IMG/VR virus record: IMGVR_UViG_3300024182_000001
Location: 1-64,000 of that record
DNA: 64,000 bases
Source: a virus
Strand: one strand, 5' to 3'
The translations under genes were made by a program, and so were the position numbers. Positions 36,649-60,872 of the stretch are shown here, in pieces. Position 1 is the first letter of the stretch. Every line of letters begins with the position of its first letter. The notes below the pieces were generated by a model. It was not told the origin of the DNA. It searched no databases and saw only the letters and a program-made list of their open reading frames with translations.

Positions 36649-37500
36649 CTAAGCCCCAAGGGTCCCATCCACCCGCTTTTGCGCCATCTCCGCGTACGTC
36701 GGGTTCAACTCCACTAAGATACAATGTCGCCCCAACTTCTTCGCCACCACCCCGACGGTCCCACTCCCTCCGAATGGATCCAGAACAACTCCGCCCACAG
36801 GACTTCCCGCCAGCATGCACGGTTCGACCAGCTTCGTCGGGAACGTGGCGAAGTGCGCTTCGCGAAACGGTTCCGGCGCTATACTCCAGACGCTTCGCTT
36901 GTTGCGTGTCTCTCTTGCGCCGATCTCCGTGAACCCGACTTTCGTACGCATCTTCTCGTCGCCGGCCTCGTAGGCGGTCTTACCTTTATGGGTCTTATTG
37001 CCTGGCGGCCGGTTCGTGGCTTCTTCCTTGATCGCATCTGCATCAAACCAATATTTCTCACTCTTGCTCAGCAGGAACAGATACTCATGCGCCTTGGTAC
37101 ATCGATCTCTCACGCTTTCCGGCATCGGGTTCGGCTTTGACCAGATGATGTCTTGCCGCAAGTACCAGCCGTCGGCCTGCAGCGCGAACGCGAGGCGCCA
37201 GGGAATACCTAGCAAGTCCTTAGGCTTGCAGCCTTGTTCCGCGCCGTTCGCGTAACTGTCCCCCACGTTCAGCCACAACGTCCCATCCGGCCGCAGCACT
37301 CTTCGCACTTCCCGAAACACTTCAACCAATTTACCCAGGTATTCATCGAATGTTTTTTCCAGCCCGATCTGACCGTCGGCGCCGTAGTTTCGCAAACCAA
37401 AATAGGGAGGGGACGTGATGGTACAGTTGATGCAGTCGGAAGCCATCTGCTTTAGCCAATGGAGTGCGTCGCCTGTGCAAATCCGAAGTTCTGGTTTCAT
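36649..37500 (-). CDS. DNA methyltransferase (N4-C/N6-A, beta class)
   Basis: Motif IV in TSPPYF and motif I in VVLDPFGGSGTVGVVA. Confidence 0.75.
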   Translation of the reverse strand: MKPELRICTGDALHWLKQMASDCINCTITSPPYFGLRNYGADGQIGLEKTFDEYLGKLVEVFREVRRVLRPDGTLWLNVGDSYANGAEQGCKPKDLLGIPWRLAFALQADGWYLRQDIIWSKPNPMPESVRDRCTKAHEYLFLLSKSEKYWFDADAIKEEATNRPPGNKTHKGKTAYEAGDEKMRTKVGFTEIGARETRNKRSVWSIAPEPFREAHFATFPTKLVEPCMLAGSPVGGVVLDPFGGSGTVGVVAKKLGRHCILVELNPTYAEMAQKRVDGTLGA

Positions 37501-37753
37501 AGTCTGAATATATACCTTCTACCCCAAAAGAAAAAGGGCCCCCTAAACCAAGACCCCTACCGCGCGCCAGGCGCTAAACCCACAGCCTCTTTAAGTTCTT
37601 CTAAACTCTCAGCTCCAAGCGGTTTCCACCACTTGCAGTCTCGGCCCTTCCAACCTGTTCGTAAACACCCGTCCCATGCGCCCTACGCGTTTTTGCCCCA
37701 ATAACAGTCTGCTTCGCGCTCGCAGCTTCCGTAGTTGTCGAGCAGATATTCTC

Positions 37754-37936
37754 TCACCTCAACCCCTTCAAAGTCTTCGCCAAATTCGCCTCTTTCCGAA
37801 CCTTCGGGCTCCCGCTCGACGCCGCCTTCTCGATTTTCTTCTCGGGGATCTTCTGCCCCTGTGGAACCCCCAGGCTCCGGTGCAAGCCACCCTTATTCTT
37901 AGTGGCTCCAGCGATCCAGTTCTTGGCCATCTCCAC
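37754..37936 (-). CDS. small basic hypothetical protein (60 aa)
   Basis: GTG start; sequence MEMAKNWIAGATKNKGGLHRSLGVPQGQKIP... Confidence 0.3.
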   Translation of the reverse strand: MEMAKNWIAGATKNKGGLHRSLGVPQGQKIPEKKIEKAASSGSPKVRKEANLAKTLKGLR

Positions 37937-37987
37937 ACTCCTTATAAGTAGCCTGGGAACAAGCGACGACGGGCTCTTACTACCATT

Positions 37988-38041
37988 GCTCTACCAGCTG
38001 AGCTACCGGCTTTCACCGGGTTGGACTCGAACCAACGACCC
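37988..38041 (-). other. tRNA-gene fragments: a T-arm plus acceptor 3' half next to a D-arm 5' fragment, not a functional tRNA
   Basis: On the minus strand, GGTCGTTGGTTCGAGTCCAACCCGGTGA (T-stem/loop plus 3' acceptor) is followed by GGTAGCTCAGCTGGTAGAGC (D-arm). No matching acceptor 5' strand or anticodon arm is present. Confidence 0.4.
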
Positions 38042-38097
38042 ACGGTTCCATTGCGAAGTATCCGTTGTCTACGCCACAGGCTATTTTCAGACTACCA

Positions 38098-38376
38098 CTA
38101 AACACTTACCCACGCAATCCGTATCGAATCGATTTCTCGAAATGCGACGGATGACCATCGGCCGAATTCGACGCGTTCAACCCTCTGCCGGCCGTAGGCA
38201 TCCCAACCTGTTACGAGATACGCAGCTGTTTCTGTTCTCGCTGGATCCGCTAAATTCCATGCCAAGTACAGCGGTGGATCCAACGCTCTGACCTTCATCA
38301 AACTCTCAACCCGCACAATAGCCGGAGCCGCGACTAAACCCGCCAGCCCGGTGATCAGCCCTCGTCTTGAGATCAT
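38098..38376 (-). CDS. hypothetical protein with a twin-arginine-like N-terminus (MISRRGLITGLAGLVAAPAI)
   Basis: ORF between the tRNA fragment and the recombinase gene. Confidence 0.3.
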   Translation of the reverse strand: MISRRGLITGLAGLVAAPAIVRVESLMKVRALDPPLYLAWNLADPARTETAAYLVTGWDAYGRQRVERVEFGRWSSVAFREIDSIRIAWVSV

Positions 38377-38384
38377 AGATCACC

Positions 38385-38642
38385 TCAGTTAGTCATCTGC
38401 GGATTTTCTTCTCGTCGCCGCTTGATCAAAGCATCTAGCTGCTCGATAAGCCATATCGATGTCTCGATCGTCATCTTGCAGTGTGCGATCAGGTGGTTCG
38501 GTTCATAGTAAACCCGGAGGTGGACCGCCTGACACGTAGGATCGTCGCAGGAGGTTACGGCGATGGTCTGGCCCATCACGACTTCCGGCGGTTCAAAATC
38601 TACTGACATTGCAAAACCCTGCCTACTTGCGAGCTGCTCCAT
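38385..38642 (-). CDS. hypothetical protein
   Basis: ORF; the start is uncertain. Confidence 0.3.
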   Translation of the reverse strand: MEQLASRQGFAMSVDFEPPEVVMGQTIAVTSCDDPTCQAVHLRVYYEPNHLIAHCKMTIETSIWLIEQLDALIKRRREENPQMTN

Positions 38643-39277
38643 CCCCCAACCCCGCGCGCGGTTGGAACCCCGCGCTGGGTGAGATCAGCAGCGATTTCCG
38701 TAAGGGATGGAACCCTGCCTCCTTTTCTCTCTATGATGTCTACGATCGTCGGGTACACATCCTTGGCTCTTGCCCGAGCCCGCTCCCTCACTACCCGCGC
38801 TCCCTCCAGCTGCGCCTCCCGGCTCACCACAACCCCCCGATTTCCTCCGAGCTTCACGCCTCGGGCCTTCGCCGCCGCCAGCGCCGCCTTGGTTCTCGCA
38901 CTTATAAGTCCAGCCTCCAGCTCCGCCACTGCCGCCATTTGCTGGAGCATAAACCGTCCCGTCGGCCCCTCGATCATCGGCAGATCGGCAAATCGCACCT
39001 CTACCCCAGCTTCCAGCAATCTCGATAAAAACGCCACGCTTCTCGTCAGCCGGTCCACCTTCGCGACCACCACCGGGATCCGATGGAGTCTCCCGACCGC
39101 CAGAGCCTTGTCCAGCTCTGGACGATCGCTTCGCTTGCCCGTCTCCACCTCGGTAAACTCTGAATGGATCCGACCGCCTCCGAGATACCCGAGCACCGCA
39201 GCCCTTTGCGCTTCGAGCCCGAGCCCGCTCAGCCCCTGCTTCTTAGTGCTGACCCTGTAATAAGCCACGAACTGCAT
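38600..39277 (-). CDS. small serine recombinase (resolvase/invertase family)
   Basis: The N-terminal AYYRVSTKKQ carries the catalytic Ser. A C-terminal HTH is present. The length of 225 aa is far too short for a large serine integrase. Confidence 0.8.
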   Translation of the reverse strand: MQFVAYYRVSTKKQGLSGLGLEAQRAAVLGYLGGGRIHSEFTEVETGKRSDRPELDKALAVGRLHRIPVVVAKVDRLTRSVAFLSRLLEAGVEVRFADLPMIEGPTGRFMLQQMAAVAELEAGLISARTKAALAAAKARGVKLGGNRGVVVSREAQLEGARVVRERARARAKDVYPTIVDIIERKGGRVPSLTEIAADLTQRGVPTARGVGGWSSSQVGRVLQCQ

Positions 39278-39959: not shown

Positions 39960-40139
39960 TCATGGCACCCTCATGAATGGATAAGCTTCCTGGCAATGTT
40001 CGGCGCAGTAGGCCGCGCGTGCTCCTTGCCTCTGCAGCGCCGGCTTCCCGCAGAACAGATGCCGGTACTCGTCTTCACCCGTCGGGTACCTGCATCCGCT
40101 CTCGGGTACCTCCCAGATGGGAATTCCTTCATTTTCCAT
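39960..40139 (-). CDS. small Cys/His-containing protein (59 aa, zinc-binding candidate)
   Basis: My own translation gives MENEGIPIWEVPESGCRYPTGEDEYRHLFCGKPALQRQGARAAYCAEHCQEAYPFMRVP. It overlaps the PseI stop by 11 nt. Confidence 0.3.
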   Translation of the reverse strand: MENEGIPIWEVPESGCRYPTGEDEYRHLFCGKPALQRQGARAAYCAEHCQEAYPFMRVP

Positions 40140-41208
40140 CAGCGTTCTCCATCGGGCGAAGTACGCGCTCGAACATTTCCAGCTTTAATGGCTCTCCACG
40201 CTCGATATCACGCGTGGCTTTATTCCCTACAATCTTGTCGATCGTATCCGGCGGCCAGCCGTGCCCCGGCCGGATGCTTCTCACATTCTCGTAGCTGAAT
40301 ACTTCCCCTTTCTTGATATCCTGCACGACGAACAGCGAGCGTCGATACGCTTTATGCACGCTCTCGGTCGTCACTTCCTCACTCTCTTGCATCGCCGACC
40401 ACGTCTCGTAGACCGCCTTGACCATCCGGGCGAACGCCGCCGGCTGCAAACTAAAAGCCTCATCCTCGCTATTCACACCCTCCAGTCTGAAATGCTTCTC
40501 GACCATGCACGCCCCAAGCGCTGTCGCAGCAATTGGAACCTCAAGCCCGAGCGTATGGTCTGACACGCCGTAGAGCGGGGAGTATCTCCGCATCTTGCCG
40601 AGGTTATAATCGCTTGTCTTGGCGGGGTATCCGGAGACGCAGTGGAGCACCACAGGTCCTGTCCCTACATCGCCCAGCCAACTTCCATCCGCGTACACGT
40701 TCGCCACGGCCCCGAGCGCTTTCAGTATGTCGTGCTGGTTCGCCATCCCGGTGGATAAAATAACGGGCTTCCCGGTTCGCGCCGCGTACCTGATCAGTGG
40801 GATATCCGTGATCTCGAACGAGGCAATCTTATATGCCGGGCACTTCAGCTTTTCCAGCATGTCGACGCTCGACGGGTCAAAAACGGAGGCAAACCACTCG
40901 ATCCCTATTGCCTTGGCATGCTCGGCGATCCAGGGGAACCACTCGAACGGCGTCTCACACTTCTTATACAGGTCCCACAGCCGCTTCCCCTTCCAGGGCC
41001 CATCCTTGATAAAAAACTCGTCCCGATCGCAATTCAGCGTGATCGTCTCGGCCGTATATGCCTGCAATTTACAAGCATCGGCTCCGCTCCGCTTGGCGGC
41101 TTCCATCGTTTCCAGGCACCGGTCCAAGCTCCCCATATGGTTCGCGCCTATCTCACAAACGATATAGGGGGCTTCCCCGCCTCCGATTTCTCTACTTCCG
41201 ATTTTCAC
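40129..41208 (-). CDS. pseI: pseudaminic/N-acetylneuraminic acid synthase family protein (NeuB/PseI-like, with SAF domain)
   Basis: N-terminus IGGGEAPYIVCEIGANHMGSLDRCLETMEAAKRSGADACKLQ. The family identification is confident; the exact sugar product is inferred. Confidence 0.8.
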   Translation of the reverse strand: MKIGSREIGGGEAPYIVCEIGANHMGSLDRCLETMEAAKRSGADACKLQAYTAETITLNCDRDEFFIKDGPWKGKRLWDLYKKCETPFEWFPWIAEHAKAIGIEWFASVFDPSSVDMLEKLKCPAYKIASFEITDIPLIRYAARTGKPVILSTGMANQHDILKALGAVANVYADGSWLGDVGTGPVVLHCVSGYPAKTSDYNLGKMRRYSPLYGVSDHTLGLEVPIAATALGACMVEKHFRLEGVNSEDEAFSLQPAAFARMVKAVYETWSAMQESEEVTTESVHKAYRRSLFVVQDIKKGEVFSYENVRSIRPGHGWPPDTIDKIVGNKATRDIERGEPLKLEMFERVLRPMENADGK

Positions 41209-41446
41209 TCAGTACCTCCCTTGGATCATACGTCCCGTTTGTATCTGGTATCCAGCCGGGGCACGTCATGAGCCCGTCGACATACCACACGGCTCCTTCC
41301 TTCTTATGGTCCCGGAAGCACTTGCCTGTGGTCTCGTCTTCTCCCGAGAACGTTTTGAACGAATAGTATCCACACATCCAGCATCGGTGTGGATCATCCT
41401 TGGTCGTAAGCTTCGCATCCGGCGGTGCGGCGTCGAAGATGCTCAT
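41192..41446 (-). CDS. small Cys-containing hypothetical protein (84 aa)
   Basis: ATGA-coupled to the PseC stop. Start chosen at MSIFDAAPPD. Confidence 0.35.
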   Translation of the reverse strand: MSIFDAAPPDAKLTTKDDPHRCWMCGYYSFKTFSGEDETTGKCFRDHKKEGAVWYVDGLMTCPGWIPDTNGTYDPREVLSENRK

Positions 41447-42585
41447 AGCTTCATCTCCTCCGCTACTTTCTTGAAAGCGTTTCCGATCTGCTTGATCTGT
41501 TCTCGCGTTGGCGACCACGCGCAATTCTCGAACAAAAAGAGCCTGCGGTCGTGAAGGTCTTCTGCCACCGGGCACTCTCTTGCATACTTCGAGAACGCCG
41601 GCAGCCGGTACAGCGGCGCCACATATCCCTGGCTCACCGGCACGCCTTCCATGAACAGCCGGCTGGTGAACTCGGCCCGCGCTCCTGACGTTTCGTTCTT
41701 CATGAGAAACGGGATGGCATAATAAACATGCTTGCATCCTTCCCGCACCGCGGGCCCTCGTATTCCAGGAATATCCCCGATCGCCTCGATGATCGCTTCT
41801 GCTTGCTCGATCCTTCCGCCAATCAGCTCGTCCGCCCTTTGGAGCTGCGAGAGCGCAATGGCCGCGGATACCTCGGTAAGTCGGAGGTTGAGGCCAATAG
41901 CCTTTCCCGCCATCTCCCCATGGTTAACGAATCTCCGTATTTTTTCCGCAAGCTCGTCGTTATCCGTGACGCATATACCTCCCTCACCACATTGCAAATG
42001 CTTATGTACGTTGAGGCTGAAAACTCCGATGTCTCCGAATGTTCCGGCATATTCACCTCGCTCCATTGCAAAGGGGGATTGGGAATTGTCTTCGATCACC
42101 GTGATATAGTTGGGTAGTTGTATCATTAAATCCTGTACTGCGGATGGATGCCCGAACAAGTTTGTTATTATAAGAGTTTGGCACCTATCTTCGTTGAAGT
42201 CGATATCGGCTGCGTGCTCAGGATTCATACAGAAGGTTGCATCTTCCACGTCAATAAAATGGGGACGGGATCCGGTGAACATTGGGGCTGCGACAGTAGC
42301 CGACATGGTGTAAGGTGAGACGGCAAACCTATTGAAGGTGGAAAGCCCGACCGCAAACGCCGCCGCCAGCAGCCCCGACGTTGCCGAATTGCATGCAACG
42401 GCGTGTTTGACGTCAAATCGCGCAGCCCACTTTTCCTCCAATTCGCAGACGTAATATCCATTCGATCTCAGCTTGCCGCCGATAAAGCCTGACAGGGTAT
42501 GACCACGCAGCATATTGTACGCGTTATATTTATCGGCGTGACTAACAGCTTCGTACGGCGCAATAGCCCCTTTCACTTCCGGCAT
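41443..42585 (-). CDS. pseC: DegT/DnrJ/EryC1-family PLP aminotransferase (PseC-like sugar aminotransferase)
   Basis: 380 aa of the DegT family, co-operonic with PseB- and PseI-like genes. Confidence 0.8.
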   Translation of the reverse strand: MPEVKGAIAPYEAVSHADKYNAYNMLRGHTLSGFIGGKLRSNGYYVCELEEKWAARFDVKHAVACNSATSGLLAAAFAVGLSTFNRFAVSPYTMSATVAAPMFTGSRPHFIDVEDATFCMNPEHAADIDFNEDRCQTLIITNLFGHPSAVQDLMIQLPNYITVIEDNSQSPFAMERGEYAGTFGDIGVFSLNVHKHLQCGEGGICVTDNDELAEKIRRFVNHGEMAGKAIGLNLRLTEVSAAIALSQLQRADELIGGRIEQAEAIIEAIGDIPGIRGPAVREGCKHVYYAIPFLMKNETSGARAEFTSRLFMEGVPVSQGYVAPLYRLPAFSKYARECPVAEDLHDRRLFLFENCAWSPTREQIKQIGNAFKKVAEEMKL

Positions 42586-43463
42586 AATTCCTCCCTCAAT
42601 TCCTCAACCGACATTCTTCGTGCGTCTTTGCTGCAGTTTGTTTCGTCCATGCTTTCGTGCAGCTTTTCCCAGCGCGGCAACCCGATTACGCGCATCTGCG
42701 CTTGGAATGCCTCAACGAGATCGCCCAGCCGATAGGCCGGCAACCGCGGGATTGCCAGTTCGCCACCTCGCATATCCTTGGCGGTATTGAGCACAAGGTC
42801 GACGGCTTGCTCCATCCGCATGAAGAAGCGCGTGCAGTTGGGATCGGTGACGTTGAGCCACGCGGGGTTCGGGTAGTACTTCTCGCATTCGGCTTTCCAC
42901 AATGGAACCACTGATCCTGTGGAACCCCAGACGTTGCCGTACCGGCAGACTGCAAACCGTGGGCCCTCTGCCCCGGTCGTATTATTTGCCGCGAGAAACA
43001 ACGACTCCATCATCGCTTTGCTGCACCCATATGGCGAGATTGGCTGGAACGCCTTGTCGCTCGATACTCCCACCACTTTCCTGACGCCTGCGTCTTGCGC
43101 CGCTTCTACCACGTTCATGGCCCCGAACACGTTGGTCTTCACCATCTCGATCGGGTTGTAGTGTCCCACCTCGATCCGCTTAAGCGCCGCGGCGTGGATC
43201 ACCACGTCGATACCGCGCATGGCGCGCACCAGTCGATCTCGATCCCGCACGTCGCCGATGAAGAAGCGTAACCGCTTATGTGGATCTAACCCTGCAAGCT
43301 CTTGGGACATCTGGTGCTGGCGGAATTCGTTGCGCGAGAATATGACTATCTTGCTAATATTTTCATATAAGGCGAGCGACGCGAAACGCGTAGTTTCTAG
43401 TAGCTGCTTCGCCAGCGCGGTTCCAAGCGCCCCTGAGCCTCCGGTTATTAAATACGACGTCAC
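42573..43463 (-). CDS. pseB: UDP-GlcNAc 4,6-dehydratase of the PseB/FlaA1/CapD type (short-chain dehydrogenase)
   Basis: ITGGSGALG Rossmann motif. Segments KIVIFSRNEFRQHQM, RFFIGDVRD and HAAALKRIE resemble PseB. Confidence 0.8.
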   Translation of the reverse strand: MTSYLITGGSGALGTALAKQLLETTRFASLALYENISKIVIFSRNEFRQHQMSQELAGLDPHKRLRFFIGDVRDRDRLVRAMRGIDVVIHAAALKRIEVGHYNPIEMVKTNVFGAMNVVEAAQDAGVRKVVGVSSDKAFQPISPYGCSKAMMESLFLAANNTTGAEGPRFAVCRYGNVWGSTGSVVPLWKAECEKYYPNPAWLNVTDPNCTRFFMRMEQAVDLVLNTAKDMRGGELAIPRLPAYRLGDLVEAFQAQMRVIGLPRWEKLHESMDETNCSKDARRMSVEELREELCRK

Positions 43464-45481
43464 GCTCTCACCATCGGTTCAACGCTTCCCCCTTCCAACC
43501 TCTTTTCCACGTCCCCCTTCCTTACCGCTTCCTCGATCACGCCCAGGGTGTGGTCGTACGATTTCAGCACGCGCTTGATCTCGCTCATTCCATGCGCCGC
43601 GCAAATGTTGTGTGAAGCGATGATCAGCGTCCCGGTCGCGATCATTTCCTTCCGGAATAGCGCGGCGATGGAACCGGCGGCAGGCATGCTTGTGTGATCC
43701 TTGAACTTCAGTCGAATGAGTGGCTCTGCACCATACAGCGAGATGTATTCAGTGAGTTCGGCGTCTTCTATTTTCAGGGCTACTTGTGCGCCAAGGTCTG
43801 CGCCTTTGAACCATAATCCGTCGATCACATTATCTCGCTCCAGCTTCTTGATCGTCGCAATCCCGGCCGCCAGGCTTAAAGCCTCTCCGAAGAACGTTCC
43901 GGAATAGAAGATATTATCTGGCGGCTCCATCCGCTTCATAATATCCCTTCGGCCGACGATTGCCGACAGCGGCATCCCGTTGGCCATCGCCTTGCCGAAG
44001 CACGCGAGATCGGGTGTCACGCCATAGAGCTTTTGCGCTCCTCCTAGGTCGAAGCGGAAGCCGGTTATGACTTCGTCGAATATAAGGACGGTGCCGGTCT
44101 CGTCGCAGTATTCGCGCAACGATTTCAGATAAGCTGGATTGCTTTCTGGTTCGACGATAACAGCGGCAAACCGTTCGATACCTGCGAGCCAGGGGTTCCA
44201 TCCAAAAGCTTCGCGCCTGCTGAATACCTGTATTCCTCCTGGGATGCCGATAGTTCGCTCGCAACTCCAGTCTGCCCACCCGTGGTACCCTCCGCATATA
44301 AGTACCCGGTTCCTGCCGGTATAAGCCCGCGCCAACCGCACCGCGCACGTGGTTGCATCCGTCCCGGTCTTGCCGAAGCGCACCATCTCGGCGCAAGGGA
44401 TCAGTCTTACCAGAAGTTCGGCTAATTCAGCTTCGAGTTCGGTGGCAAGGGAAAATGAGATGCCTCGGGAGAGTTGATCTCGGATTGCTCCATCGACGTT
44501 AGGATCACAGTAGCCCAGGATGTTTGGGAGCAGGCCGGACACAAGATCAGTGTATGAGTTACCGTTGACATCCCAGACTGTTCCTCCTTGCCCGTGGGTG
44601 AGGAAGAGTGGGGAGGGTTGGGGGAATTGGAGTTTTGACTTGCTGAATGTTTGTGTGCCCAGCGGAATGACAGCTTCAGCGCTTCCCAAAAGACTTTGGG
44701 AGCGATCATAGCTGCGGCGATATACGGGCTCCTCCACCAACGCATCGTAATACCTCTGATTTATTTCGTGATCAGTATTCAGTTTTCGCAGCGCCGGGCT
44801 TTTGTCCAGAATATCGAGGATAGCCAGTTGTGACGGCGGCCCTTTTTCCCACGGCCAGTTGGTGGCGATTGCCTTGCAGAATTCGTAATCTGCCGCAGTG
44901 TCGAGAACGTATCTTTCTTTATGTTGGTTTGAAATAGGGTTGATAATGGTTCTGGCGGAAAACCGCGACTGGTTGGCCTGTATCCACGTCGTTACGCATT
45001 CCCGATCGATGGGGCGGATGGCTTCTTTGTCGGCGGCACGTAGCGCGTCGATCGTAACCGCCTCACAATCTTGCCCGTCAGCGAAGGTGCGCGGGCTGAC
45101 ATTGCTAGCGTAATCGCAGCCAGTATCTTTTTGGAGCCTGACGACTTCCCCGATAATATTTGGATCAATTAGCGGACAGTCACAGGTGACCCTTATTGCA
45201 ACACTGGCGTTTGCCGCTTCGGCAGCACCGAGAAAGCGAGAGAGCACATCGGTCTCCGAGCCGCGGAAGACATTGACAGCGTGACTGTGGCACCAATCTT
45301 CAACAGTGTCGTCTGCAGGCAGCGTAGACGTAGCGATCCATACTTCATCCACTCCGATTGCAGCTTTCGCGGCGCGCGTAACCCATGCTATGACGGGCTG
45401 GCCGCCAAGATCCATCATCACTTTCCCCCTGAGCCGCGTAGACCCCATTCGGGCAATGCCGATAAAAACTGTTTTCACCAT
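43460..45481 (-). CDS. bifunctional protein: N-terminal cytidylyltransferase (CMP-nonulosonate synthetase/SpsF-like) fused to a class-III (GSA-aminomutase-like) aminotransferase
   Basis: N-terminus VFIGIARMGSTRLRGKVM. C-terminal DEVITGFR, FGKAMANGMP (Lys) and SGTFFGEALS motifs are typical of PLP class-III aminotransferases. Confidence 0.7.
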   Translation of the reverse strand: MVKTVFIGIARMGSTRLRGKVMMDLGGQPVIAWVTRAAKAAIGVDEVWIATSTLPADDTVEDWCHSHAVNVFRGSETDVLSRFLGAAEAANASVAIRVTCDCPLIDPNIIGEVVRLQKDTGCDYASNVSPRTFADGQDCEAVTIDALRAADKEAIRPIDRECVTTWIQANQSRFSARTIINPISNQHKERYVLDTAADYEFCKAIATNWPWEKGPPSQLAILDILDKSPALRKLNTDHEINQRYYDALVEEPVYRRSYDRSQSLLGSAEAVIPLGTQTFSKSKLQFPQPSPLFLTHGQGGTVWDVNGNSYTDLVSGLLPNILGYCDPNVDGAIRDQLSRGISFSLATELEAELAELLVRLIPCAEMVRFGKTGTDATTCAVRLARAYTGRNRVLICGGYHGWADWSCERTIGIPGGIQVFSRREAFGWNPWLAGIERFAAVIVEPESNPAYLKSLREYCDETGTVLIFDEVITGFRFDLGGAQKLYGVTPDLACFGKAMANGMPLSAIVGRRDIMKRMEPPDNIFYSGTFFGEALSLAAGIATIKKLERDNVIDGLWFKGADLGAQVALKIEDAELTEYISLYGAEPLIRLKFKDHTSMPAAGSIAALFRKEMIATGTLIIASHNICAAHGMSEIKRVLKSYDHTLGVIEEAVRKGDVEKRLEGGSVEPMVRA

Positions 45482-45990
45482 CGTGCAAATTCTCCATGAT
45501 ATTTTTTAGCGGCTTTTTGGTATGCTGTGGCTGCGTCGCTGATGTTGTTAAAATAGCCTAAAAATTTGCGCTGTTTATTGGTTGTTATTTGTGCCAGCCA
45601 TTTTTTCATATCCGGATGCCAGCATACGCCTTTAACGCCGCTTGTGTTTCGGATCGATGGTTTTTTATTATATGTATTTTGAGGCCGCGTGGCATCTCGC
45701 AGATTGGAAATTCGGTTGTCACTTCTATTTAAATTTCTATGATCTAGATCATTGATAGGCCAGCGACCACGTTCGTAGAACCAAGCTACTCTAGCAGCTT
45801 GAAAAAGCGTACCATCAACTCTTATCTGTATGTATCCGTCAGCTTTTAGGGAGCCGGCTACGTCACCTGTTTTACTGTTTCCGCGTGATATAAGGCGCGT
45901 AAATACGCCGGTGGCACGATCATAGTGAAGTACTTCTAAAAGCCGCGCGTGGAGTAGTTGCTTTTCTTTTTTCCTGTTTATTGCGGTCAT
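45475..45990 (-). CDS. HNH-AP2 homing endonuclease
   Basis: HNH_3 motifs in ARVAWFYERGRWP and DLDHRNLNRSDNRISNLR. AP2 DNA-binding domain in GVKGVCWHPDMKKWLAQITTNKQRKFLGYF. ATGA-coupled at both ends within the operon. Confidence 0.75.
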   Translation of the reverse strand: MTAINRKKEKQLLHARLLEVLHYDRATGVFTRLISRGNSKTGDVAGSLKADGYIQIRVDGTLFQAARVAWFYERGRWPINDLDHRNLNRSDNRISNLRDATRPQNTYNKKPSIRNTSGVKGVCWHPDMKKWLAQITTNKQRKFLGYFNNISDAATAYQKAAKKYHGEFARW

Positions 45991-46868
45991 CCCAACCCCA
46001 CCTTTTCCTTAACTTGCCGGCAAATCTCCAGCACTCGAAGCCCATCTTCACCCGTGGCCCATTGAACTGGCGGTTCTGCCGCGGTTCTAGTTGGGGCTAT
46101 GCCACCTATGAACGCCTGCATCTCATCGATATAGTCGTCATTCCACTCCCCACCGAACTGCTGCGTCATCTTGCCGAACGACACTTGCCGTCCGAGCATA
46201 TCCAGCCCGATGTTCTTCTCGGTACCGACGATCCAGCCTTCCCGGATTTCGTTCCGGGTCACATAATCCAGGTGGATGGTACTTCGGGCGCCGCTGTCGT
46301 GTTCAAGCACAATGTCGGCAATGTCATCCTTGCCGTCCACGACATGCACGGACGCCGCCACCACCTTCGCTGGCCCCAGCAGATAAAGCGCCAAGTCGAT
46401 CTCGTGCGACCAGTTCAGCACGACTCCATCACGCAGATAATCCGGCTTGTCGTTGTATTGCCCGCAGATGAAGGTAGCCCACAGCGGCGTGCCGATATGC
46501 CCGGCGTCGATCCAATTCTTGGCCGCTTTGATGCAGGGATGGAACCTGAGAAAATAGCCGAGAAATAGTTCTTTAAGCAGGTCTTCTTGCCAGAACTGTG
46601 CGATCTGGGCGCAAGTTCCTAGCGGCTTTTCCATAAAGATTTTGGCTCTTGCGGACATGGTAGCCCAGTCGTCGTAGTGACGGTTGGTGGGAGTGCATAT
46701 GAGAATAGCGTCGCTTTCAATTACTTCATCTCGATCCCAGAGTACGCCGCTGAGCGCCAACCTTTTTTTCATATCAGTGTCATACCCAATAACCTGGTGC
46801 CCCATCATTTTAAGATTACGCGCATGTCGCATCCCGATCGAGCCCAGCCCAAGAATCCCTATCTTCAT
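45987..46868 (-). CDS. Gfo/Idh/MocA-family NAD(P)-dependent oxidoreductase
   Basis: MKIGILGLGSIGMRHA Rossmann motif. The start was moved to M17, which is ATGA-coupled. Confidence 0.65.
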   Translation of the reverse strand: MKIGILGLGSIGMRHARNLKMMGHQVIGYDTDMKKRLALSGVLWDRDEVIESDAILICTPTNRHYDDWATMSARAKIFMEKPLGTCAQIAQFWQEDLLKELFLGYFLRFHPCIKAAKNWIDAGHIGTPLWATFICGQYNDKPDYLRDGVVLNWSHEIDLALYLLGPAKVVAASVHVVDGKDDIADIVLEHDSGARSTIHLDYVTRNEIREGWIVGTEKNIGLDMLGRQVSFGKMTQQFGGEWNDDYIDEMQAFIGGIAPTRTAAEPPVQWATGEDGLRVLEICRQVKEKVGLG

Positions 46869-47482
46869 GTTCTCACCGGTATTGCGTTTGTTCGTTTTTG
46901 CAGGATGGTTATGCACTCATCTTCCACATATAGGCGCGACCTATCCTGTACGTGATACCAAGGGTGTGCCGTCCACAATTCCGAGAAATCGAGATGGTAC
47001 GCGAGTAAACCTTCTTTCGGACTGTATGGAACGGCGTATGCAGGCTGGAGCGTGTTGAAATCATGAATAACCAGCCACCCTCCATCCGCCAGCAGCCTGT
47101 CCGCTTCCGCCACGATCCGGAACCATTCACGTGGCTCCGTAACATACAAGCAGAACCCGAAGATGATCATGTCGAACGTGCCGCCAAGCCATGGCTCGCT
47201 GTATCCGAACTTGCCCCAGCAGACATCATCCAGCCCGCTCGTAATAGCGACTGCCACGGCATCCTGGCTGGTATCAATCCCCGACACCCGGCAGCCGTAT
47301 TTATCTCGCATCTTGCGCAGTCGCCAGCCGTTGGAACATCCGACTTCGAGCACCCGCTTCGGGCGGATCAGCGGCAATAGCCCGAGTAGATCGCCGACCG
47401 GATCGCGCTTGCCGAGCTTCTCCTTGTTGCGATGGTACCAGGCATCGCCCTCGCCATTTAGGAATGTGTCGCTCTGGCTCAT
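46865..47482 (-). CDS. class I SAM-dependent methyltransferase
   Basis: Motif I in VLEVGCSNG, with an acidic residue at the end of beta-2 (GID). Confidence 0.65.
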   Translation of the reverse strand: MSQSDTFLNGEGDAWYHRNKEKLGKRDPVGDLLGLLPLIRPKRVLEVGCSNGWRLRKMRDKYGCRVSGIDTSQDAVAVAITSGLDDVCWGKFGYSEPWLGGTFDMIIFGFCLYVTEPREWFRIVAEADRLLADGGWLVIHDFNTLQPAYAVPYSPKEGLLAYHLDFSELWTAHPWYHVQDRSRLYVEDECITILQKRTNAIPVRT

Positions 47483-48240: not shown

Positions 48241-48416
48241 TCTGGAAGCTCCACTTTGATCCAATGGGTAAAACCAGCTTTTTCTGGTTCTAGATAATGA
48301 GTAGCGCTGCTGGTAAACCACGCCACCGGATGTGGAGCATCTTTATTCCATACAAGTATGATGGATCCATCACGTGGAGCCGCGCAGTATTCCAGATTTT
48401 CCCATTCCCACTTCAT
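48237..48416 (-). CDS. small hypothetical protein (59 aa)
   Basis: My own translation gives MKWEWENLEYCAAPRDGSIILVWNKDAPHPVAWFTSSATHYLEPEKAGFTHWIKVELPE. ATGA-coupled on both sides. Confidence 0.3.
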   Translation of the reverse strand: MKWEWENLEYCAAPRDGSIILVWNKDAPHPVAWFTSSATHYLEPEKAGFTHWIKVELPE

Positions 48417-48928
48417 TTAAACCTCCCATAAAGCAAAGCCCCAACCGGGGCGTGATCGATGATGAATTTATTCTTCCGTTCCCCCTCAAGTACGAACCTC
48501 GATTTCTCAAGGATACGCTTCATCGGGATATTAGCTGCCGCGCACCCGGCTTCCAGTTTCCGTATCTGGCCGCCATCTCGTTGATCAAGTAGCCAGTTGG
48601 TAGCAGCCAGCCAAGCCTCGAAGCCATAGCCCTGCCCCCACACGTTCATGAACCCGATCATGATCCCGACGTCGGCGACGTTGTTCGGATGATCCACTTC
48701 TGCCGAGATATTGCCGATATGCTCGCCGCTCTTGACGGTGTATATGCCCCACAGGTATCCACAAAATCCGCTTACGTAGCGGTTCTGGGTACTGAGCGTG
48801 TGTTCCTTATGGCGTTGCTCCGAGAACTTTGTGACTTCCTTATCCCGGAGCCAGTCTACTTGACGTTGGGTGGCTTTGGTTAGGGGGCGTAGCGTTAGCC
48901 TTTGGGTAGAGATGGTGGGGACGATCAT
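48413..48928 (-). CDS. GNAT N-acetyltransferase (RimL/PseH-like)
   Basis: GNAT core GIMIGFMNVWGQGYGFEA. In the context of PseB, PseC and PseI it suggests a PseH-like role. Confidence 0.6.
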   Translation of the reverse strand: MIVPTISTQRLTLRPLTKATQRQVDWLRDKEVTKFSEQRHKEHTLSTQNRYVSGFCGYLWGIYTVKSGEHIGNISAEVDHPNNVADVGIMIGFMNVWGQGYGFEAWLAATNWLLDQRDGGQIRKLEAGCAAANIPMKRILEKSRFVLEGERKNKFIIDHAPVGALLYGRFK

Positions 48929-49413
48929 CAGAACGACGCGACGTTGACCACAACCATCTTGAGATCGCGGATTTTAGCCGGCTCCAGATACTCAGTGCGT
49001 TCCTTCACCTTCTTGTCGACGATCTTGACGCGCTTGGCGTTGTGGGCTTCCAGGATCGTCTTGATATCGATCTCGAAGAATAGTTCCTGGTCGGTCGCAT
49101 CGGTAAGTTTCTGCTCGCCGCTATAGAGCAGCGCTATATCGAGCGGCACATTTTCGTTCGGGTCGGCGATGAACACTTGCACGAGGCGGCGAGTGGTTAC
49201 GGCCATAAGATTTTCCTTCAATGGTGGTGGAATAGGGTGGGTAGCGTGTCTGTCTAGCGCATTTTTATATTGTTGAGCGAGGTTGCCATGATTTTGTGCG
49301 AGAGGGGAACCTACAATTTGCCCAGCTTGTGCTTGCCCAAAGCAAGCCAAGTTCATAGGAGTGCTGGCGTAGGTACTTGACGCGATGTGCGGGATATCAC
49401 CGGTTGCCATCAT
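48928..49413 (-). CDS. hypothetical protein (161 aa)
   Basis: GAGGCGAGGAAA RBS with ATGA coupling. An internal start at 49206 (also with a strong RBS) is an alternative. Confidence 0.4.
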   Translation of the reverse strand: MMATGDIPHIASSTYASTPMNLACFGQAQAGQIVGSPLAQNHGNLAQQYKNALDRHATHPIPPPLKENLMAVTTRRLVQVFIADPNENVPLDIALLYSGEQKLTDATDQELFFEIDIKTILEAHNAKRVKIVDKKVKERTEYLEPAKIRDLKMVVVNVASF

Positions 49414-49571
49414 TTCCTCGCCTTCTCAAGCGCATGGTCCGTCAGCTTTAACAGGCTCTCGATCGCCAGCCGTATGGTGGCGGCCGAAGCGTCGAAGTCG
49501 CCGATGATTTTGAGCCTGTCGCGTTCCAGCAGGAGCGTATTTCTAAGTTCAACGATTTCGTCGCGGGTCAT
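49410..49571 (-). CDS. small hypothetical protein (53 aa)
   Basis: My own translation gives MTRDEIVELRNTLLLERDRLKIIGDFDASAATIRLAIESLLKLTDHALEKARK. ATGA-coupled on both sides. Confidence 0.3.
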   Translation of the reverse strand: MTRDEIVELRNTLLLERDRLKIIGDFDASAATIRLAIESLLKLTDHALEKARK

Positions 49572-49906
49572 GGTTTACTTTCTGGGGTCGAATCGCTAGT
49601 TTTTGGTTCGTCGTCTTCGACAGCTATTTCAAGCGCATCGACGATAACTTTAGCAATACGATCGGATGCGCCAAGAAGAAATTTTTCCATCTGGATGGCA
49701 GTTTCAAAAACATGATCGAGATGTAGTGTTGTTATATTTCTGCCCTCCAGCTTATATTGCTGGTACAAGGCGCCATCATGGATGGTGTTCATATTGTGGT
49801 ATTGAATCGCCATGTTTAGAGCTAGAGCGGCGATACCATGCGCTGGCGCGATCGGCGCGTCTTTGAGGGCTTCCAGTTCTTTAAAAGGACGTTCTTCAGG
49901 GTTCAT
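49568..49906 (-). CDS. hypothetical protein (112 aa), first gene of the island operon
   Basis: AAGGAG RBS before MNPEERPF. The Arg-rich 42-aa extension in the ORF track is probably untranslated. Confidence 0.4.
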   Translation of the reverse strand: MNPEERPFKELEALKDAPIAPAHGIAALALNMAIQYHNMNTIHDGALYQQYKLEGRNITTLHLDHVFETAIQMEKFLLGASDRIAKVIVDALEIAVEDDEPKTSDSTPESKP

Positions 49907-50150
49907 GTTGAACTCCTTGCCGAAATTTCTTGCCGCCAATCGACGTGGATACCTTCTCGCTTCTCGTCCACGATGCGCCTTACGACCTCCGAAACCGACA
50001 CGCTGTATTCGCGCGCCCGCTTTTCCAGCCATTGCATCTGGGATTTTGTAAAAACGATGCCGCGTTGTATGCCTGTCACCCGAATTCTCCCGTCAATGTT
50101 AGGTTAGTCTATATACGGACTAGTCATCTGTCAAGCGGTTTGTTCCAAAA

Positions 50151-51818
50151 ATGAACGTTCCCCTTACTCCAAAGCAGCTCGCCCAGTTCGCTCAAGCCTT
50201 AGAGCGCCAGAAAATCGTCGATGAAGCCGAAAAACTGGAGGGATCACTCTACGAATTCGTCAAAGCAGCGTGGCCATTCTTCGATCCAGCCGATTTTCAG
50301 GGAAATTGGCACCTGGAAGATGCCTGCAGGCACTTGGAAGCCGTTGCCAGGGGGCATATCAACCGGCTTTTGATCAATGTTCCGCCACGGACGGCAAAAT
50401 CCAGCCTGGCATCAGTCTGTTTTATTCCTTGGATATGGGCGCAACGTGAAGAAGGCCCCCTCTTGGGGCCGAAAGTGTCGGCTTTTTACGCTTCCTACGC
50501 TGAATCGCTTGCCCTGGAGCATTCTCTTAAGTGCCGACGCCTCATCGAATCCAAGTGGTACCAGCGCCGATGGGGGAATCGCTTCAAATTGGTCTCTGAT
50601 CGCAATAAAATCGGGCATTTCGAGAATGATAAGGGCGGCTATCGCATGGCGTCATCCGTTGGCGCGCGGGCGACGGGCTGGGGCGCCTCACTTATCCTTG
50701 CCGATGACCCTCACCTTGTTCAGGAAGCCGAATCCGAGGTGGTGCGGGAAAGTGTGATCAAGTGGTGGTCGGAATCGATGCCCTCGCGCCTCAATGACCG
50801 GCGCACCGGGGCCATGATCGTCATCATGCAGCGTGTCCATGCTGGTGACGTAGCCGGCTACGTGCTCTCCGGCGAGATGGGCTACGTCCATTATTGCGTC
50901 CCCATGTGCTATATGCCTTGCCGGCACGTGAATGCGTGGGTCGGCGACCAGGTCCAAACGTTTTTGGGCGATGACGTCGACAAAGTGAAGGAAGAAGACA
51001 TTTTCTGGGTCGATCAACGTACCGAAGACGGCCAATTGCTGTGGCCCGAGCGCTTTCCGGCCAAGGACGTGGCCAAATTAGAGACGGAATTGGGGCCTTA
51101 CGGCTTTGCCGGGCAGTACCAGCAGAATCCAGCCCCCCGCGGCGGCGGGATCATTCGGGAGGAATGGTGGAAGGAGTACGACGACGAGTCTGGCGCTGAA
51201 TTCGGCGCCAAGCCGGGGCAATATCCGGCCTGCGAGTACATTCTGGCATCTCTCGATACGGCTTACACTGAGAAAGAGGAAAATGACCCGTCAGCACTTT
51301 CTATTTGGGGTGTTTTCCGGGATAAAATGTCCAACCCGCAGATCATTCTCATGTTCTGCTGGCAAGAGCGTATGGTGATCCACGAGTTGGTCTCGCGGGT
51401 GGGGGCGGACTGTAAACGCTTCAAGGTTGACCGGTTGATCATTGAAGACAAGGCGGCTGGGCACTCGGTTTCCCAGGAAATAGCACGTCTGTTTGGCAAT
51501 TTCGATTTTGGCATCGAACTCGTCAACCCGCGCACTGGCTTTATCGCTTCTCCGGATAAAGTGGCTCGTGTGCAGACGGTGGTGCACTTGTTCGCGGAAG
51601 GAATGATCTGGGCGCCGGATAAGAAGTGGGCCGATGAGATGATCAACCAGTGTTCGCTATTTCCGCGCGCTACTCATGATGACCTGGTCGACACTCTTTC
51701 CCAAGGGCTTATCTATCTCCGCCGTGCCGGCTGGGCGGTAAAGAAGGAGGAACGCACTCTTGAGATCGAGGATGAGCTGCGTTATCGCCCGAAATTTCAG
51801 CCGCTTTATCCAGCGTAA
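50151..51818 (+). CDS. terL: terminase large subunit
   Basis: ATPase Walker A-like VPPRTAKSS and Walker B LILADDPH. The C-terminal region is nuclease-like and rich in acidic residues. Confidence 0.8.
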   Translation: MNVPLTPKQLAQFAQALERQKIVDEAEKLEGSLYEFVKAAWPFFDPADFQGNWHLEDACRHLEAVARGHINRLLINVPPRTAKSSLASVCFIPWIWAQREEGPLLGPKVSAFYASYAESLALEHSLKCRRLIESKWYQRRWGNRFKLVSDRNKIGHFENDKGGYRMASSVGARATGWGASLILADDPHLVQEAESEVVRESVIKWWSESMPSRLNDRRTGAMIVIMQRVHAGDVAGYVLSGEMGYVHYCVPMCYMPCRHVNAWVGDQVQTFLGDDVDKVKEEDIFWVDQRTEDGQLLWPERFPAKDVAKLETELGPYGFAGQYQQNPAPRGGGIIREEWWKEYDDESGAEFGAKPGQYPACEYILASLDTAYTEKEENDPSALSIWGVFRDKMSNPQIILMFCWQERMVIHELVSRVGADCKRFKVDRLIIEDKAAGHSVSQEIARLFGNFDFGIELVNPRTGFIASPDKVARVQTVVHLFAEGMIWAPDKKWADEMINQCSLFPRATHDDLVDTLSQGLIYLRRAGWAVKKEERTLEIEDELRYRPKFQPLYPA

Positions 51819-60029: not shown

Positions 60030-60872
60030 ATGATCGAACGGCAGTGGCCGCAGATCTTCAAGTCCGTCGACTCGAACATGGCGCTCGAACGTCGTGTCGC
60101 GGTGCGCTTCCTAGGCTACGCGCAGCTCAAGAACGAAGGCGCTCCGACCGCCGCGGACAATAACGCCGGCCAGCGCTACGTGTACAATGCCGAACACTTT
60201 GAAATCGGTCTTATGTACGCGATCACTCGCAAGGCGATCGACGACAACCTCTACAAATCCGAGTTCGGCCCCAACAACGACGGCCTTATGGAGTCGTTCA
60301 AGGAAACCGAAGAAGTCTACGCCGGCAACGTGCTCAACAACGGCTCCGTCTATAACCCGGCCGTTCAGGGCGACGGTGTTGCGCTTATCTCGACCGCGCA
60401 TCCGATCGACGGAGCGACAATTGCCAACCAGCCTTCTCCGGATGTTTCTCTGAATGAGACTTCGCTGCTCAATTCGGCGATTGTCATCCGATCGACCTGG
60501 AAGAACAACGCTGGCCTGAAAATCCATGCGCGTGGGCAGAAGCTGATCGTGCCTCCGAACCTGGAGCCGATCGCCGCGCGCTTGTTTCGATCTGAGTTGC
60601 GAGTGGGTACTGGTCAGAACGACGTTAACGCCGTGCGCGAGATGGAGCAGTCCTTCAAGGAAGGCTACATGGTGTACGACTATCTCACGTCGTCTTTTGC
60701 CTGGTTCGTGCTGACGAATATTCAGGGACTTGTGTTCTTCCAGCGTAAGGCGTTCGAGAGTGACATGAGCGTCGAGTTTACTACTGATAACCTTTTAGTC
60801 AAGGGTTATCAACGCTACATTCCAACATATTTTGACTGGAGGAGAATTTTTGGAACCTACCCTACGTCGTAA
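60030..60872 (+). CDS. putative major capsid protein (280 aa), assigned by position
   Basis: Follows the scaffold/assembly genes and has its own promoter. It shows no clear similarity to T7 or lambda capsid proteins, so this is tentative. Confidence 0.4.
   Translation: MIERQWPQIFKSVDSNMALERRVAVRFLGYAQLKNEGAPTAADNNAGQRYVYNAEHFEIGLMYAITRKAIDDNLYKSEFGPNNDGLMESFKETEEVYAGNVLNNGSVYNPAVQGDGVALISTAHPIDGATIANQPSPDVSLNETSLLNSAIVIRSTWKNNAGLKIHARGQKLIVPPNLEPIAARLFRSELRVGTGQNDVNAVREMEQSFKEGYMVYDYLTSSFAWFVLTNIQGLVFFQRKAFESDMSVEFTTDNLLVKGYQRYIPTYFDWRRIFGTYPTS

Follow-up and report, generated by a model that had tools for sequence, protein, structure and literature searches.

A phage-borne cytidylyltransferase-aminotransferase fusion in a pseudaminic acid-type gene module: a candidate enzyme for an additional sugar amination

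Why should a phage join a sugar-activating enzyme to a domain that databases name after a step of the heme pathway? The question is posed by a gene in a 64,000-nucleotide stretch of viral DNA (IMG/VR record IMGVR_UViG_3300024182_000001, positions 1 to 64,000), here called the window, whose product carries a cytidylyltransferase (CT) followed by a class-III, pyridoxal phosphate (PLP)-dependent aminotransferase (AT). The gene lies in a cluster for a pseudaminic acid (Pse)-type nonulosonate, and our favored reading, to which we give a probability of roughly 45%, is that the fusion is a bifunctional enzyme of a phage-borne pathway to a modified Pse-type nonulosonate, which would be aminated at an additional position. 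Pse-type sugars coat flagella, pili, capsules, and O-antigens and govern motility, immune recognition, and phage adsorption, and the genes for many Pse derivatives are not known. A Gfo/Idh/MocA-family oxidoreductase (GFO), a class-III AT, and an SpsF-type CT together make up a widespread, uncharacterized tailoring set, whose AT is mislabeled in databases as the heme-pathway "GSA aminomutase" (glutamate-1-semialdehyde aminomutase, GSAM). This set offers candidate genes for the third amino group of known triamino nonulosonates.

The CT-AT fusion gene

The gene and its parts are as follows.
43460..45481, minus strand: CT-AT fusion gene, 673 aa (open reading frame [ORF] list, Pfam, NCBIfam, homologs, and AlphaFold2 model)
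44777..45481, minus strand: cytidylyltransferase domain of the SpsF/KdsB type, approximately residues 1-235 (CTP_transf_3 at 9-205, PDB matches, and invariant residues)
44717..44776, minus strand: family-conserved inter-domain helices, approximately residues 236-255 (invariant N241 and R243; AlphaFold2 model)
43460..44716, minus strand: class-III PLP aminotransferase domain of type B, residues 256-673 plus stop (PRK06209, Foldseek, loop deletions, and subtype motifs)
43991..43993, minus strand: codon of Lys497, the predicted PLP Schiff-base lysine (translation; invariant in 62 homologs and aligned with the catalytic lysine of GSAM)

The fusion is one uninterrupted gene that joins an SpsF/KdsB-type CT to a class-III PLP AT. 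It begins with ATG, has zero internal stops, and encodes 673 amino acids, as described in an earlier note made from the letters of this DNA; the coordinates given there were right, and the strand is corrected here to minus. A protein identical to the fusion is present in a public collection (P0001), and more than 120 homologs in public metagenomes, with 53-70% identity, are co-linear with it across 97-100% of its length. The CT/AT junction is an open frame in 21 of 21 related phage loci. A frameshift, a misread stop, or a misassembly is ruled out by the single ORF, the co-linear homologs, and these open junctions.

Both domains proposed in the earlier note were recovered. The nonulosonate-type cytidylyltransferase fold of the N-terminal half is supported by a CTP_transf_3 match at residues 9-205 (E value, 3.7e-24; 86.2 bits against a cut-off of 22.6), and the GSAM-like class-III PLP domain of the C-terminal half by an Aminotran_3 match (E value, 1.2e-43; 149.8 bits against a cut-off of 30.5) and by Foldseek. 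The motif FGKAMANGMP, in which the catalytic lysine had been placed, is found in the protein, and its lysine, K497, is invariant in an alignment of 62 homologs with a mean column identity of 60%. Other invariant residues of this alignment are R11, S14, R16, G19, and K20 in the CTP loop and D101 and P103 in the metal site of the CT half, and Y399-H400-G401, D469, T529, and G373 in the AT half, in which T374 is conserved in at least 90% of the homologs. K497, D469, G373/T374, and T529 line up with the GSAM equivalents, as is expected of class-III PLP enzymes. The AlphaFold2 model is a confident two-domain protein (predicted local distance difference test [pLDDT] score, 86.6; predicted template modeling [pTM] score, 0.85), with linker helices at residues 229-235 and 242-250 (pLDDT, 74-82). 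Pfam parsing and this model, two of the checks that the earlier note had proposed, both support two intact domains. Fold searches of the PDB and of BFVD, which holds predicted viral structures, returned no two-domain match to the model.

The CT half carries the CTP-binding loop ARMGSTRLRGK and the metal-site stretch TCDCP. Its closest PDB entry is the uncharacterized 6OEW (8e-30), followed by entries for KdsB, the synthetase of cytidine monophosphate (CMP)-activated 3-deoxy-d-manno-octulosonic acid (Kdo). The PseF equivalog TIGR03584 gave no match to the N-terminal 251 amino acids at E<=1e-3, and the models that did match were weak KdsB models. Judged by these matches, the CT half is a CTP_transf_3 member outside the PseF equivalog, and it probably transfers CMP to a 2-keto-3-deoxy acid. 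It shares the CTP_transf_3 fold, the P-loop, the metal-site motifs, and the pseF slot in Pse clusters with the PseF/SpsF CMP-nonulosonate synthetases, but the fusion misses TIGR03584, is SpsF/6OEW-like, and is joined to an AT. It is the sole cytidylyltransferase of the phage Pse-type cluster.

The aminotransferase domain and its relatives

Foldseek aligns the AT half with solved structures of GSAM, FumI, ForI, and PctV (template modeling scores, 0.8-0.87), and GSAMs are its best PDB matches by sequence. It shares the class-III fold and the PLP-binding residues with HemL, the best PDB match by both sequence and structure, but it scores far from the HemL models: 241.6 bits with TIGR00713 (cut-off, 527.3) and 251.5 bits with PRK00062 (cut-off, 398). 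The paralog model PRK06209 aligns over residues 256-672 with 304.6 bits (cut-off, 486). Compared with four GSAM structures, the AT half has deletions after YHGWAD, in a stretch aligned to what we take to be the GSAM gating loop. In GSAM, the gating loop has a role in retaining the diamine intermediate. In addition, the glycine-rich SGTEA of GSAM is replaced by TGTDA, and the substrate motif GGVNSPVRAF is replaced by LGTQTFSKSK, with a lysine at the position of GSAM Arg32; QTFSKS is invariant in the family alignment and, together with GKTGTDATT and the short loop after YHGW, characterizes the AT half. On these sequence features, the domain is best regarded as a class-III aminotransferase and not HemL. 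A true HemL is ruled out by the sub-cut-off scores, the shortened gating loop, the replaced motifs, and the nonulosonate neighbors.

The aligned AT genes of 100 loci fall into three types. Type A has a 44-residue loop, QLLSKR, and GGEAMA; in most bacteria and archaea it lies next to the CT, and in Pseudosulfitobacter the two are fused. Type B has a loop of 27-31 residues (27 in the phage AT versus 44 in the type A relatives), QTFSKS, and GTDxTT, and it is carried by all of the phages, by the loci L006, L007, and L022 of candidate phyla radiation (CPR) bacteria, by Methylomagnum, and by rhizobial PRK06209 proteins. Type C occurs in Elusimicrobia and others, without sugar context. The phage domain shares its short loop and the QTFSK/QTLSK motif with the ATs that are fused to GFO or NeuB. 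According to this sequence typing, CT appears to have been joined independently to two AT subfamilies (A and B), which makes a stronger case for a functional link between CT and AT.

In their source databases, the homologs are named "glutamate-1-semialdehyde 2,1-aminomutase". A PRK06209-type protein with this name is encoded on rhizobial plasmids (L104, Agrobacterium pusense pAt1) in a polysaccharide cluster with genes for an NAD(P) oxidoreductase, DUF4910, PIG-L, a methyltransferase, and a glucose-1-phosphate cytidylyltransferase; DUF4910 is shared with a Halorussus cluster (L101). PRK06209-type proteins have probably been misnamed HemL in a systematic way.

Among annotated bacterial proteins, the nearest to the phage AT domain (43% identity) is encoded on a Methylomagnum ishizawai plasmid (L103, 7235-13680). 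Its cluster consists of a CT-like gene, a split transketolase, the AT, a short-chain dehydrogenase/reductase (SDR), a short NeuB-family synthase, and an HAD-IIIA phosphatase, which suggests another uncharacterized amino-ulosonic acid pathway.

The gene module around the fusion

The fusion belongs to a minus-strand block with the following genes, listed in their order.
48413..48928, minus strand: GNAT (Acetyltransf_3) acyltransferase (Pfam; conserved in phage loci)
47479..48321, minus strand: second S-adenosylmethionine (SAM) methyltransferase, 280 aa (Pfam; among the relatives only in L085 and L095)
46865..47482, minus strand: class I SAM methyltransferase, 205 aa (Pfam; in 18 of 21 related phage loci)
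45987..46916, minus strand: GFO, an NAD-dependent oxidoreductase (Pfam, NCBIfam, and PDB matches)
45475..45990, minus strand: HNH_3 and AP2 homing endonuclease gene between GFO and the fusion, outside the pathway (Pfam)
43460..45481, minus strand: the fusion
42573..43463, minus strand: PseB-like UDP-GlcNAc 4,6-dehydratase, short at 296 aa (Polysacc_synt_2, 1e-71)
41443..42585, minus strand: DegT-family sugar aminotransferase, PseC/LegC-like (Pfam)
40129..41208, minus strand: PseI, pseudaminic acid synthase with NeuB and SAF domains (Pfam; TIGR03586)

The nonulosonate context that the earlier note had assumed is confirmed by PseI, which lies above the NCBIfam equivalog cut-off (TIGR03586, 384.2 versus 340.25 bits). 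The best model of the PseB-like gene is the PseB model TIGR03589 (290 bits; cut-off, 407.75), and the DegT gene scores 137.5 bits with PseC and 133.4 bits with LegC, both far below the cut-offs. The nearest NCBIfam models of GFO are inositol 2-dehydrogenase and then archaeal UDP-GlcNAc 3-dehydrogenase, and its nearest PDB entries are 3EZY, inositol dehydrogenases, and 7BVJ ("Oxidoreductase, NAD-binding"), which is presumably GnnA. The earlier note had overlooked this adjacent dehydrogenase, which we propose as the maker of the ketone. The module GNAT gave no match to NCBIfam, including the PseH-family models.

The GNAT/methyltransferase/GFO/CT-AT/PseB/DegT/NeuB module is present in 21 related phage contigs with 49-70% identity, beside the terminase and portal genes, and GFO adjoins the fusion in all of the related phage loci. 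The HNH-AP2 gene is missing from all 21, where GFO abuts the fusion directly. In the window, it overlaps both the GFO and the CT-AT genes by a few bases, the fusion gene overlapping its stop by 7 nucleotides, and it looks like a recent mobile insertion within the operon. In some relatives, the stretch between PseB and DegT also encodes an ATP-grasp ligase and a PIG-L deacetylase, together with a second GNAT, which is PseH-like. By tblastn, no match to the PseG hydrolase part was detected in the window or in any phage locus (L080-L100), and the PseH-like GNAT, present in some related phages, was not found in the window. The missing PseG and PseH steps need host enzymes or unrecognized phage ORFs.

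Small ORFs at 48928-49413 (161 aa, conserved in some relatives) and 49568-50032 are without family match. Just downstream of the sugar module (36649-39277, minus strand) lie a small serine recombinase of the resolvase type (225 aa), also present in the relatives L086 and L100, and an N6/N4 DNA methyltransferase.

Distribution of the CT-AT pairing

When 1.84 billion cluster representatives (50% identity) were searched exhaustively with HMMER, 2847 matched at E<=1e-30, and the architectures of the best 150 are as follows.
CT+AT: 73 of 150 representatives (65 near-complete, 25-55% identity)
AT alone: 64 of 150
GFO+AT: 4 of 150
GNAT-like+AT: 3 of 150
GNAT+CT+AT: 2 of 150 (P0168 and P0210)
GFO+CT+AT: 1 of 150
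NeuB+AT: 1 of 150
PseB+AT: 1 of 150
CT+AT+PseG: 1 of 150

The AT is thus coupled in genomes with CT, GFO, GNAT, and NeuB. The GFO-bearing AT fusions (P0128, P0155, P0182, P0205, and P0211) are of the same AT subfamily, type B, as the phage domain. A separate Pfam scan identified P0258 as a protein with an APH kinase and an AT, which the probe-based tally counts under AT alone.

In cellular genomes, CT and AT are usually separate but adjacent, in either order, among PseB, DegT, and NeuB genes; their hosts include Acidobacteriaceae, Nitrospirota, Nitrospinota, Desulfovibrio, Alkalispirochaeta, and many CPR bacteria. A plasmid of Halorussus aquaticus (L101) carries unfused Gfo/Idh/MocA, CT, and class-III AT genes in this order, with NeuB, DegT, SDR, GNAT, and methyltransferase genes. 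In Pseudosulfitobacter pseudonitzschiae, plasmid pSMR1-1 has, by its PGAP names, the order pseB, pseC, aldo-keto reductase (AKR), GNAT, a hypothetical gene, the CT-AT fusion, pseG, and pseI, with no separate pseF, and from this gene order the fusion appears to occupy the pseF slot. The CPR loci with a type B AT have the order PseB, DegT, GFO, AT, APH kinase, and CT, with GFO directly upstream of AT, and GFO is adjacent in L006, L022, and L101 as it is in the phage loci. The APH-family kinase between the AT and the CT lies at 11766-13007 in L022 and at 11973-13043 in L006. The latter locus has two SpsF-type cytidylyltransferases and two GFO genes; the phage CT domain has 29-38% BLAST identity to all of its cytidylyltransferases.

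The Legionella serogroup 6 O-antigen cluster contains PseG, a "GSA aminomutase", and an acylneuraminate cytidylyltransferase, and most Aeromonas polar-flagellin islands have the order pseB, pseC, AKR, pseF, class III AT, pseG, and pseI, in both cases without an assigned function for the AT (PMC7874193, PMC3694923). As in the phage, the class-III AT lies directly beside a cytidylyltransferase in a pseB/C/G/I cluster, with an AKR near, but the CT and AT genes of these clusters are unfused. The earlier note had called the implied chemistry unusual. In occurrence, the pairing is widespread: it is known from metagenomes and phages, from CPR bacteria and haloarchaea, and from a Roseobacter plasmid, Legionella, and Aeromonas, and no evidence ties the fusion to the Campylobacter Ptm or Bacillus Sps loci in which the note had suggested looking. 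The literature search returned no paper that characterizes the CT-AT architecture, and the search on phage nonulosonate pathways, triamino nonulosonates, and GFO/AT/nonulosonate combinations returned nothing beyond the Aeromonas survey. The architecture is widespread, already in databases under a wrong name, and uncharacterized.

Related tailoring systems

By analogy of design, the closest known system is EpaA/EpaB of Acinetobacter baumannii prophages, in which a CTP_transf_3-reductase fusion and a dehydrogenase remodel Pse at C8 (PMC12053666). In both systems, which are phage-borne, a tailoring domain follows an N-terminal CTP_transf_3 domain in one fusion protein, and the NAD(P) oxidoreductase is encoded apart from it; EpaA and EpaB act on the Pse C8 hydroxyl and presumably reactivate the product as a CMP-sugar. 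The likeness of EpaA to the phage fusion is one of architecture only. The C terminus of EpaA is an AKR, which leads to the 8-epimer, whereas an amine would be expected from the class-III PLP aminotransferase at the C terminus of the phage fusion; the partner enzyme is an SDR (EpaB) in the one and a Gfo/Idh/MocA protein in the other; and EpaAB depend wholly on host psa genes, whereas the window phage has its own PseB-like, DegT, and PseI genes. By analogy of chemistry, the closest systems are Kdo8N and the GFO/aminotransferase pairs.

In the synthesis of Kdo8N in Shewanella, KdnB oxidizes a hydroxyl of the free ulosonic acid, KdnA transaminates the ketone, and KdsB activates the product with CMP. 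This pathway differs from the one proposed for the phage in its eight-carbon sugar, its primary C8 alcohol, its KdnB of the iron-alcohol-dehydrogenase type, the other AT family of KdnA, and its unfused genes. In the pairs WbpB/WbpE, GnnA/GnnB, and NtdC/NtdA, the keto-sugar produced by a GFO-family enzyme is the substrate of a PLP-dependent amination. WbpE, GnnB, and NtdA, all of the DegT family, work at C3 of UDP-sugars or of glucose-6-phosphate, whereas the phage AT is of class III and its substrate is likely a nonulosonate. Together with KdnB/KdnA, these dehydrogenase/aminotransferase pairs represent the standard route from C-OH to C-NH2.

Proposed pathway

In the proposed scheme, the PseB-like enzyme, DegT, and PseI would build a nine-carbon sugar, with help for the absent PseG and PseH steps. 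GFO would then oxidize one of the two free secondary hydroxyls to a ketone, most likely that at C8 and otherwise that at C4, and the class-III AT domain would transaminate this ketone to an amine. The GNAT, the methyltransferase, or both may cap the new amine, and the SpsF-type CT domain would turn the product into a CMP-sugar donor. The genomic coupling of GFO with AT is borne out by their adjacency in the phage loci and by the five fusion proteins.

The choice between C4 and C8 follows from the structure of Pse, in which only the C4 and C8 hydroxyls are free. Amination before the NeuB step, at C3 of the hexose, is unlikely on chemical grounds: this carbon becomes C6, whose oxygen closes the pyranose ring. 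C8 is favored because EpaA and EpaB remodel C8 and because an 8-amino nonulosonic acid occurs in nature, namely, 8-amino-3,5,7,8,9-pentadeoxy-manno-nonulosonic acid in the O-antigen of Flexibacter maritimus (PMC3210612). The Tenacibaculum O-antigen paper lists dehydratase, aminotransferase, oxidoreductase, and acetyltransferase genes at a resolution too low to bear on this hypothesis. In Aeromonas hydrophila AH-1, whose island is of subgroup IA, flagellin carries a 403-Da noncanonical Pse-like glycan with an oxonium ion at m/z 404. By the nitrogen rule, this ion would have an odd number of nitrogens, unlike Pse5Ac7Ac, and the AH-1 glycan is circumstantial support for an extra amination.

Amination of the free acid before activation is favored because the solved class-III relatives use nonnucleotide substrates and because NeuB-AT and GFO-AT fusions occur without CT. 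The earlier note had proposed that the activated sugar is aminated; an aminated nonulosonate does fit best, but the network of fusions and the habits of class-III enzymes favor the free sugar as substrate. A narrower version, in which a lineage of 70-77-kb phages encodes its own route to a CMP-8-amino-8-deoxy-Pse derivative, possibly N-methylated or N-acetylated, by means of GFO and a fusion of a type B AT with a CMP-synthetase, is tentative and, as a whole, doubtful.

Several points weigh against the proposed pathway. In a phage without PseG and the PseH-like GNAT, the encoded pathway appears incomplete from its gene content. Twenty further ORFs of the window gave no Pfam match to a glycosyltransferase or to a transferase of the Maf type. 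GFO or AKR probes were positive in just about two-thirds of the bacterial loci with a nonulosonate context. The PseB-AT and APH-AT fusions (one each) and the CPR kinase are unexplained by a simple linear scheme. Among Aeromonas, Legionella, Pseudosulfitobacter, and Halorussus, the enzymes inspected are of type A, as are the other CT-adjacent ATs inspected in bacteria, so that their evidence would carry over to the phage type B only indirectly; both AT subfamilies are biochemically uncharacterized, and their activity is predicted. The position of the amine is argued from chemistry and analogy only.

If the narrower version is right, the Tenacibaculum O-antigen sugar would have its first genes for the extra amino group, as might the flagellin glycans of Aeromonas that are still unexplained, and phages would rewrite a host surface sugar or decorate their own virions with an aminated nonulosonate. 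An uncultured phage family that carries most of the Pse pathway implies that EpaAB is not the only case in which phages remodel glycans of the host or the virion.

Alternative explanations

In an alternative that follows the earlier note, the CT would first make CMP-Pse, and GFO and AT would then oxidize and aminate the CMP-activated sugar. CT-AT is by far the commonest architecture in the tally, the gene order GFO-CT-AT is compatible with this sequence of steps, and the fold model appears to pack both domains rigidly. This order of events is unlikely all the same, since the nearest solved AT relatives (the GenB C-6' aminotransferases, FumI, ForI, and PctV) use nonnucleotide substrates, the NeuB-AT and GFO-AT fusions fit tailoring before activation, and the Kdo8N precedent aminates before activation. 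To our knowledge, nucleotide-sugar aminotransferases belong to the DegT family; in addition, CMP-ulosonates are labile, and both points speak against a CMP-activated substrate.

The AT could instead act on an N-acyl group, converting a keto-acyl substituent (pyruvoyl, acetoacetyl, or 2-oxoglutaryl) on N5 or N7 into an aminoacyl group after GFO has oxidized a hydroxyacyl. Aminoacyl and hydroxyacyl N-substituents are common on nonulosonates, the ATP-grasp ligase, PIG-L deacetylase, and second GNAT of some phage relatives suggest de-acetylation and re-acylation, and by our own, unverified arithmetic the 403-Da Aeromonas glycan equals Pse with one acetyl exchanged for glutamyl. Against this, GFO, AT, CT, and methyltransferase are kept in the window phage even though it has neither the ATP-grasp nor the PIG-L gene; the nearest relatives of GFO are inositol 2-dehydrogenases and other sugar or cyclitol dehydrogenases; and the module contains no acyl-carrier or CoA-ligase gene. 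We consider this explanation rather unlikely.

It is improbable that the AT is a GSAM-like aminomutase or PLP epimerase that works on an alpha-amino-carbonyl, such as a 7-amino-8-keto sugar, and shifts or inverts an existing amine. By sequence, no solved relatives are closer than the GSAMs, an epimerase (GenB2) and racemases also have the class-III fold, and without a PseH-like GNAT in the window phage N7 could stay free beside a C8 ketone; however, in type B the gating-loop region has shrunk to 27 residues from about 44, the HemL cut-offs are missed, and the fold agrees as well with the transaminases FumI and ForI as with GSAMs.

Another explanation, on which we would place very little weight, is that GFO, AT, and CT make a dedicated nucleotide-activated amino-sugar precursor (compare PtmA/PtmF/PtmE in the synthesis of Campylobacter legionaminic acid) and that the CT is not the CMP-nonulosonate synthetase. 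The CPR order GFO-AT-APH kinase-CT can be read as oxidation, amination, phosphorylation, and nucleotidylation, an APH-AT fusion exists, and L006 has a second CT. All characterized CTP_transf_3 enzymes known to us, however, activate 2-keto-3-deoxy ulosonic acids, and this specificity argues against such a precursor; the clusters of the phage, L022, L007, and Pseudosulfitobacter would also have a synthase and no CMP-synthetase, no kinase is present in the phage module, and PGAP names UDP-based pseB, pseC, and pseG beside the Pseudosulfitobacter fusion.

The likelihood that the C-terminal half is a genuine HemL for heme or chlorophyll precursors, brought along as an auxiliary metabolic gene and joined to the CT by chance, or an inactive remnant, is negligible in our view: the database names and the GSAMs as best PDB matches speak for it, but the domain is below all HemL cut-offs, its gating-loop region is deleted, SGTEA has become TGTDA, its fusion and synteny partners are exclusively nonulosonate genes with nonulosonate or sugar enzymes as neighbors, and the invariant catalytic residues and the 60% mean column identity argue against decay.

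The phage genome

The window is phage DNA, which the earlier note had missed. It encodes a large terminase (50151-51818) and a portal protein (51978-54515), as well as a DNA polymerase, a primase-helicase, and a GH108 endolysin. In L099 and L100, the orthologs of the portal protein carry the SU10_portal assignment. A tRNA scan of the window found none. Megablast of 20 kb of the window against 50,697 deposited phages gave no nucleotide match, and a tblastn search of the fusion against the deposited phages found no fusion and only host-derived matches of the HemL/BioA type. A search of these phages with PseI gave just 3 distant NeuB homologs. The terminase is closest to that of an uncultured virus (41% identity); the next deposited relatives include Roseobacter and Paracoccus phages, at 35-39% identity. 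Many of the contigs that bear fusion homologs are 70-77 kb long. A contig binned as Hyphomicrobiaceae (L063) ends in a partial match to the phage AT domain (9731-10180; 65% identity), which may be a host hint or a misbinned phage fragment.

In the structural region, neither a 1563-aa ORF (5561-10252, plus strand) nor a 550-aa ORF (10256-11908, plus strand) matches Pfam or PHROG; a role in the tail or in receptor binding is conceivable, as is a hidden transferase. A 289-aa protein with a 3'-phosphoadenosine-5'-phosphosulfate (PAPS)-reductase domain (22810-23679, minus strand) is encoded among the phage replication genes. The late genes include a nuclease gene with Endonuclease VII and HNH_3 domains (60940-61872, plus strand), and beside this second nuclease lies an ORF (60030-60872) with a weak match to a Mu gpT-like head protein.

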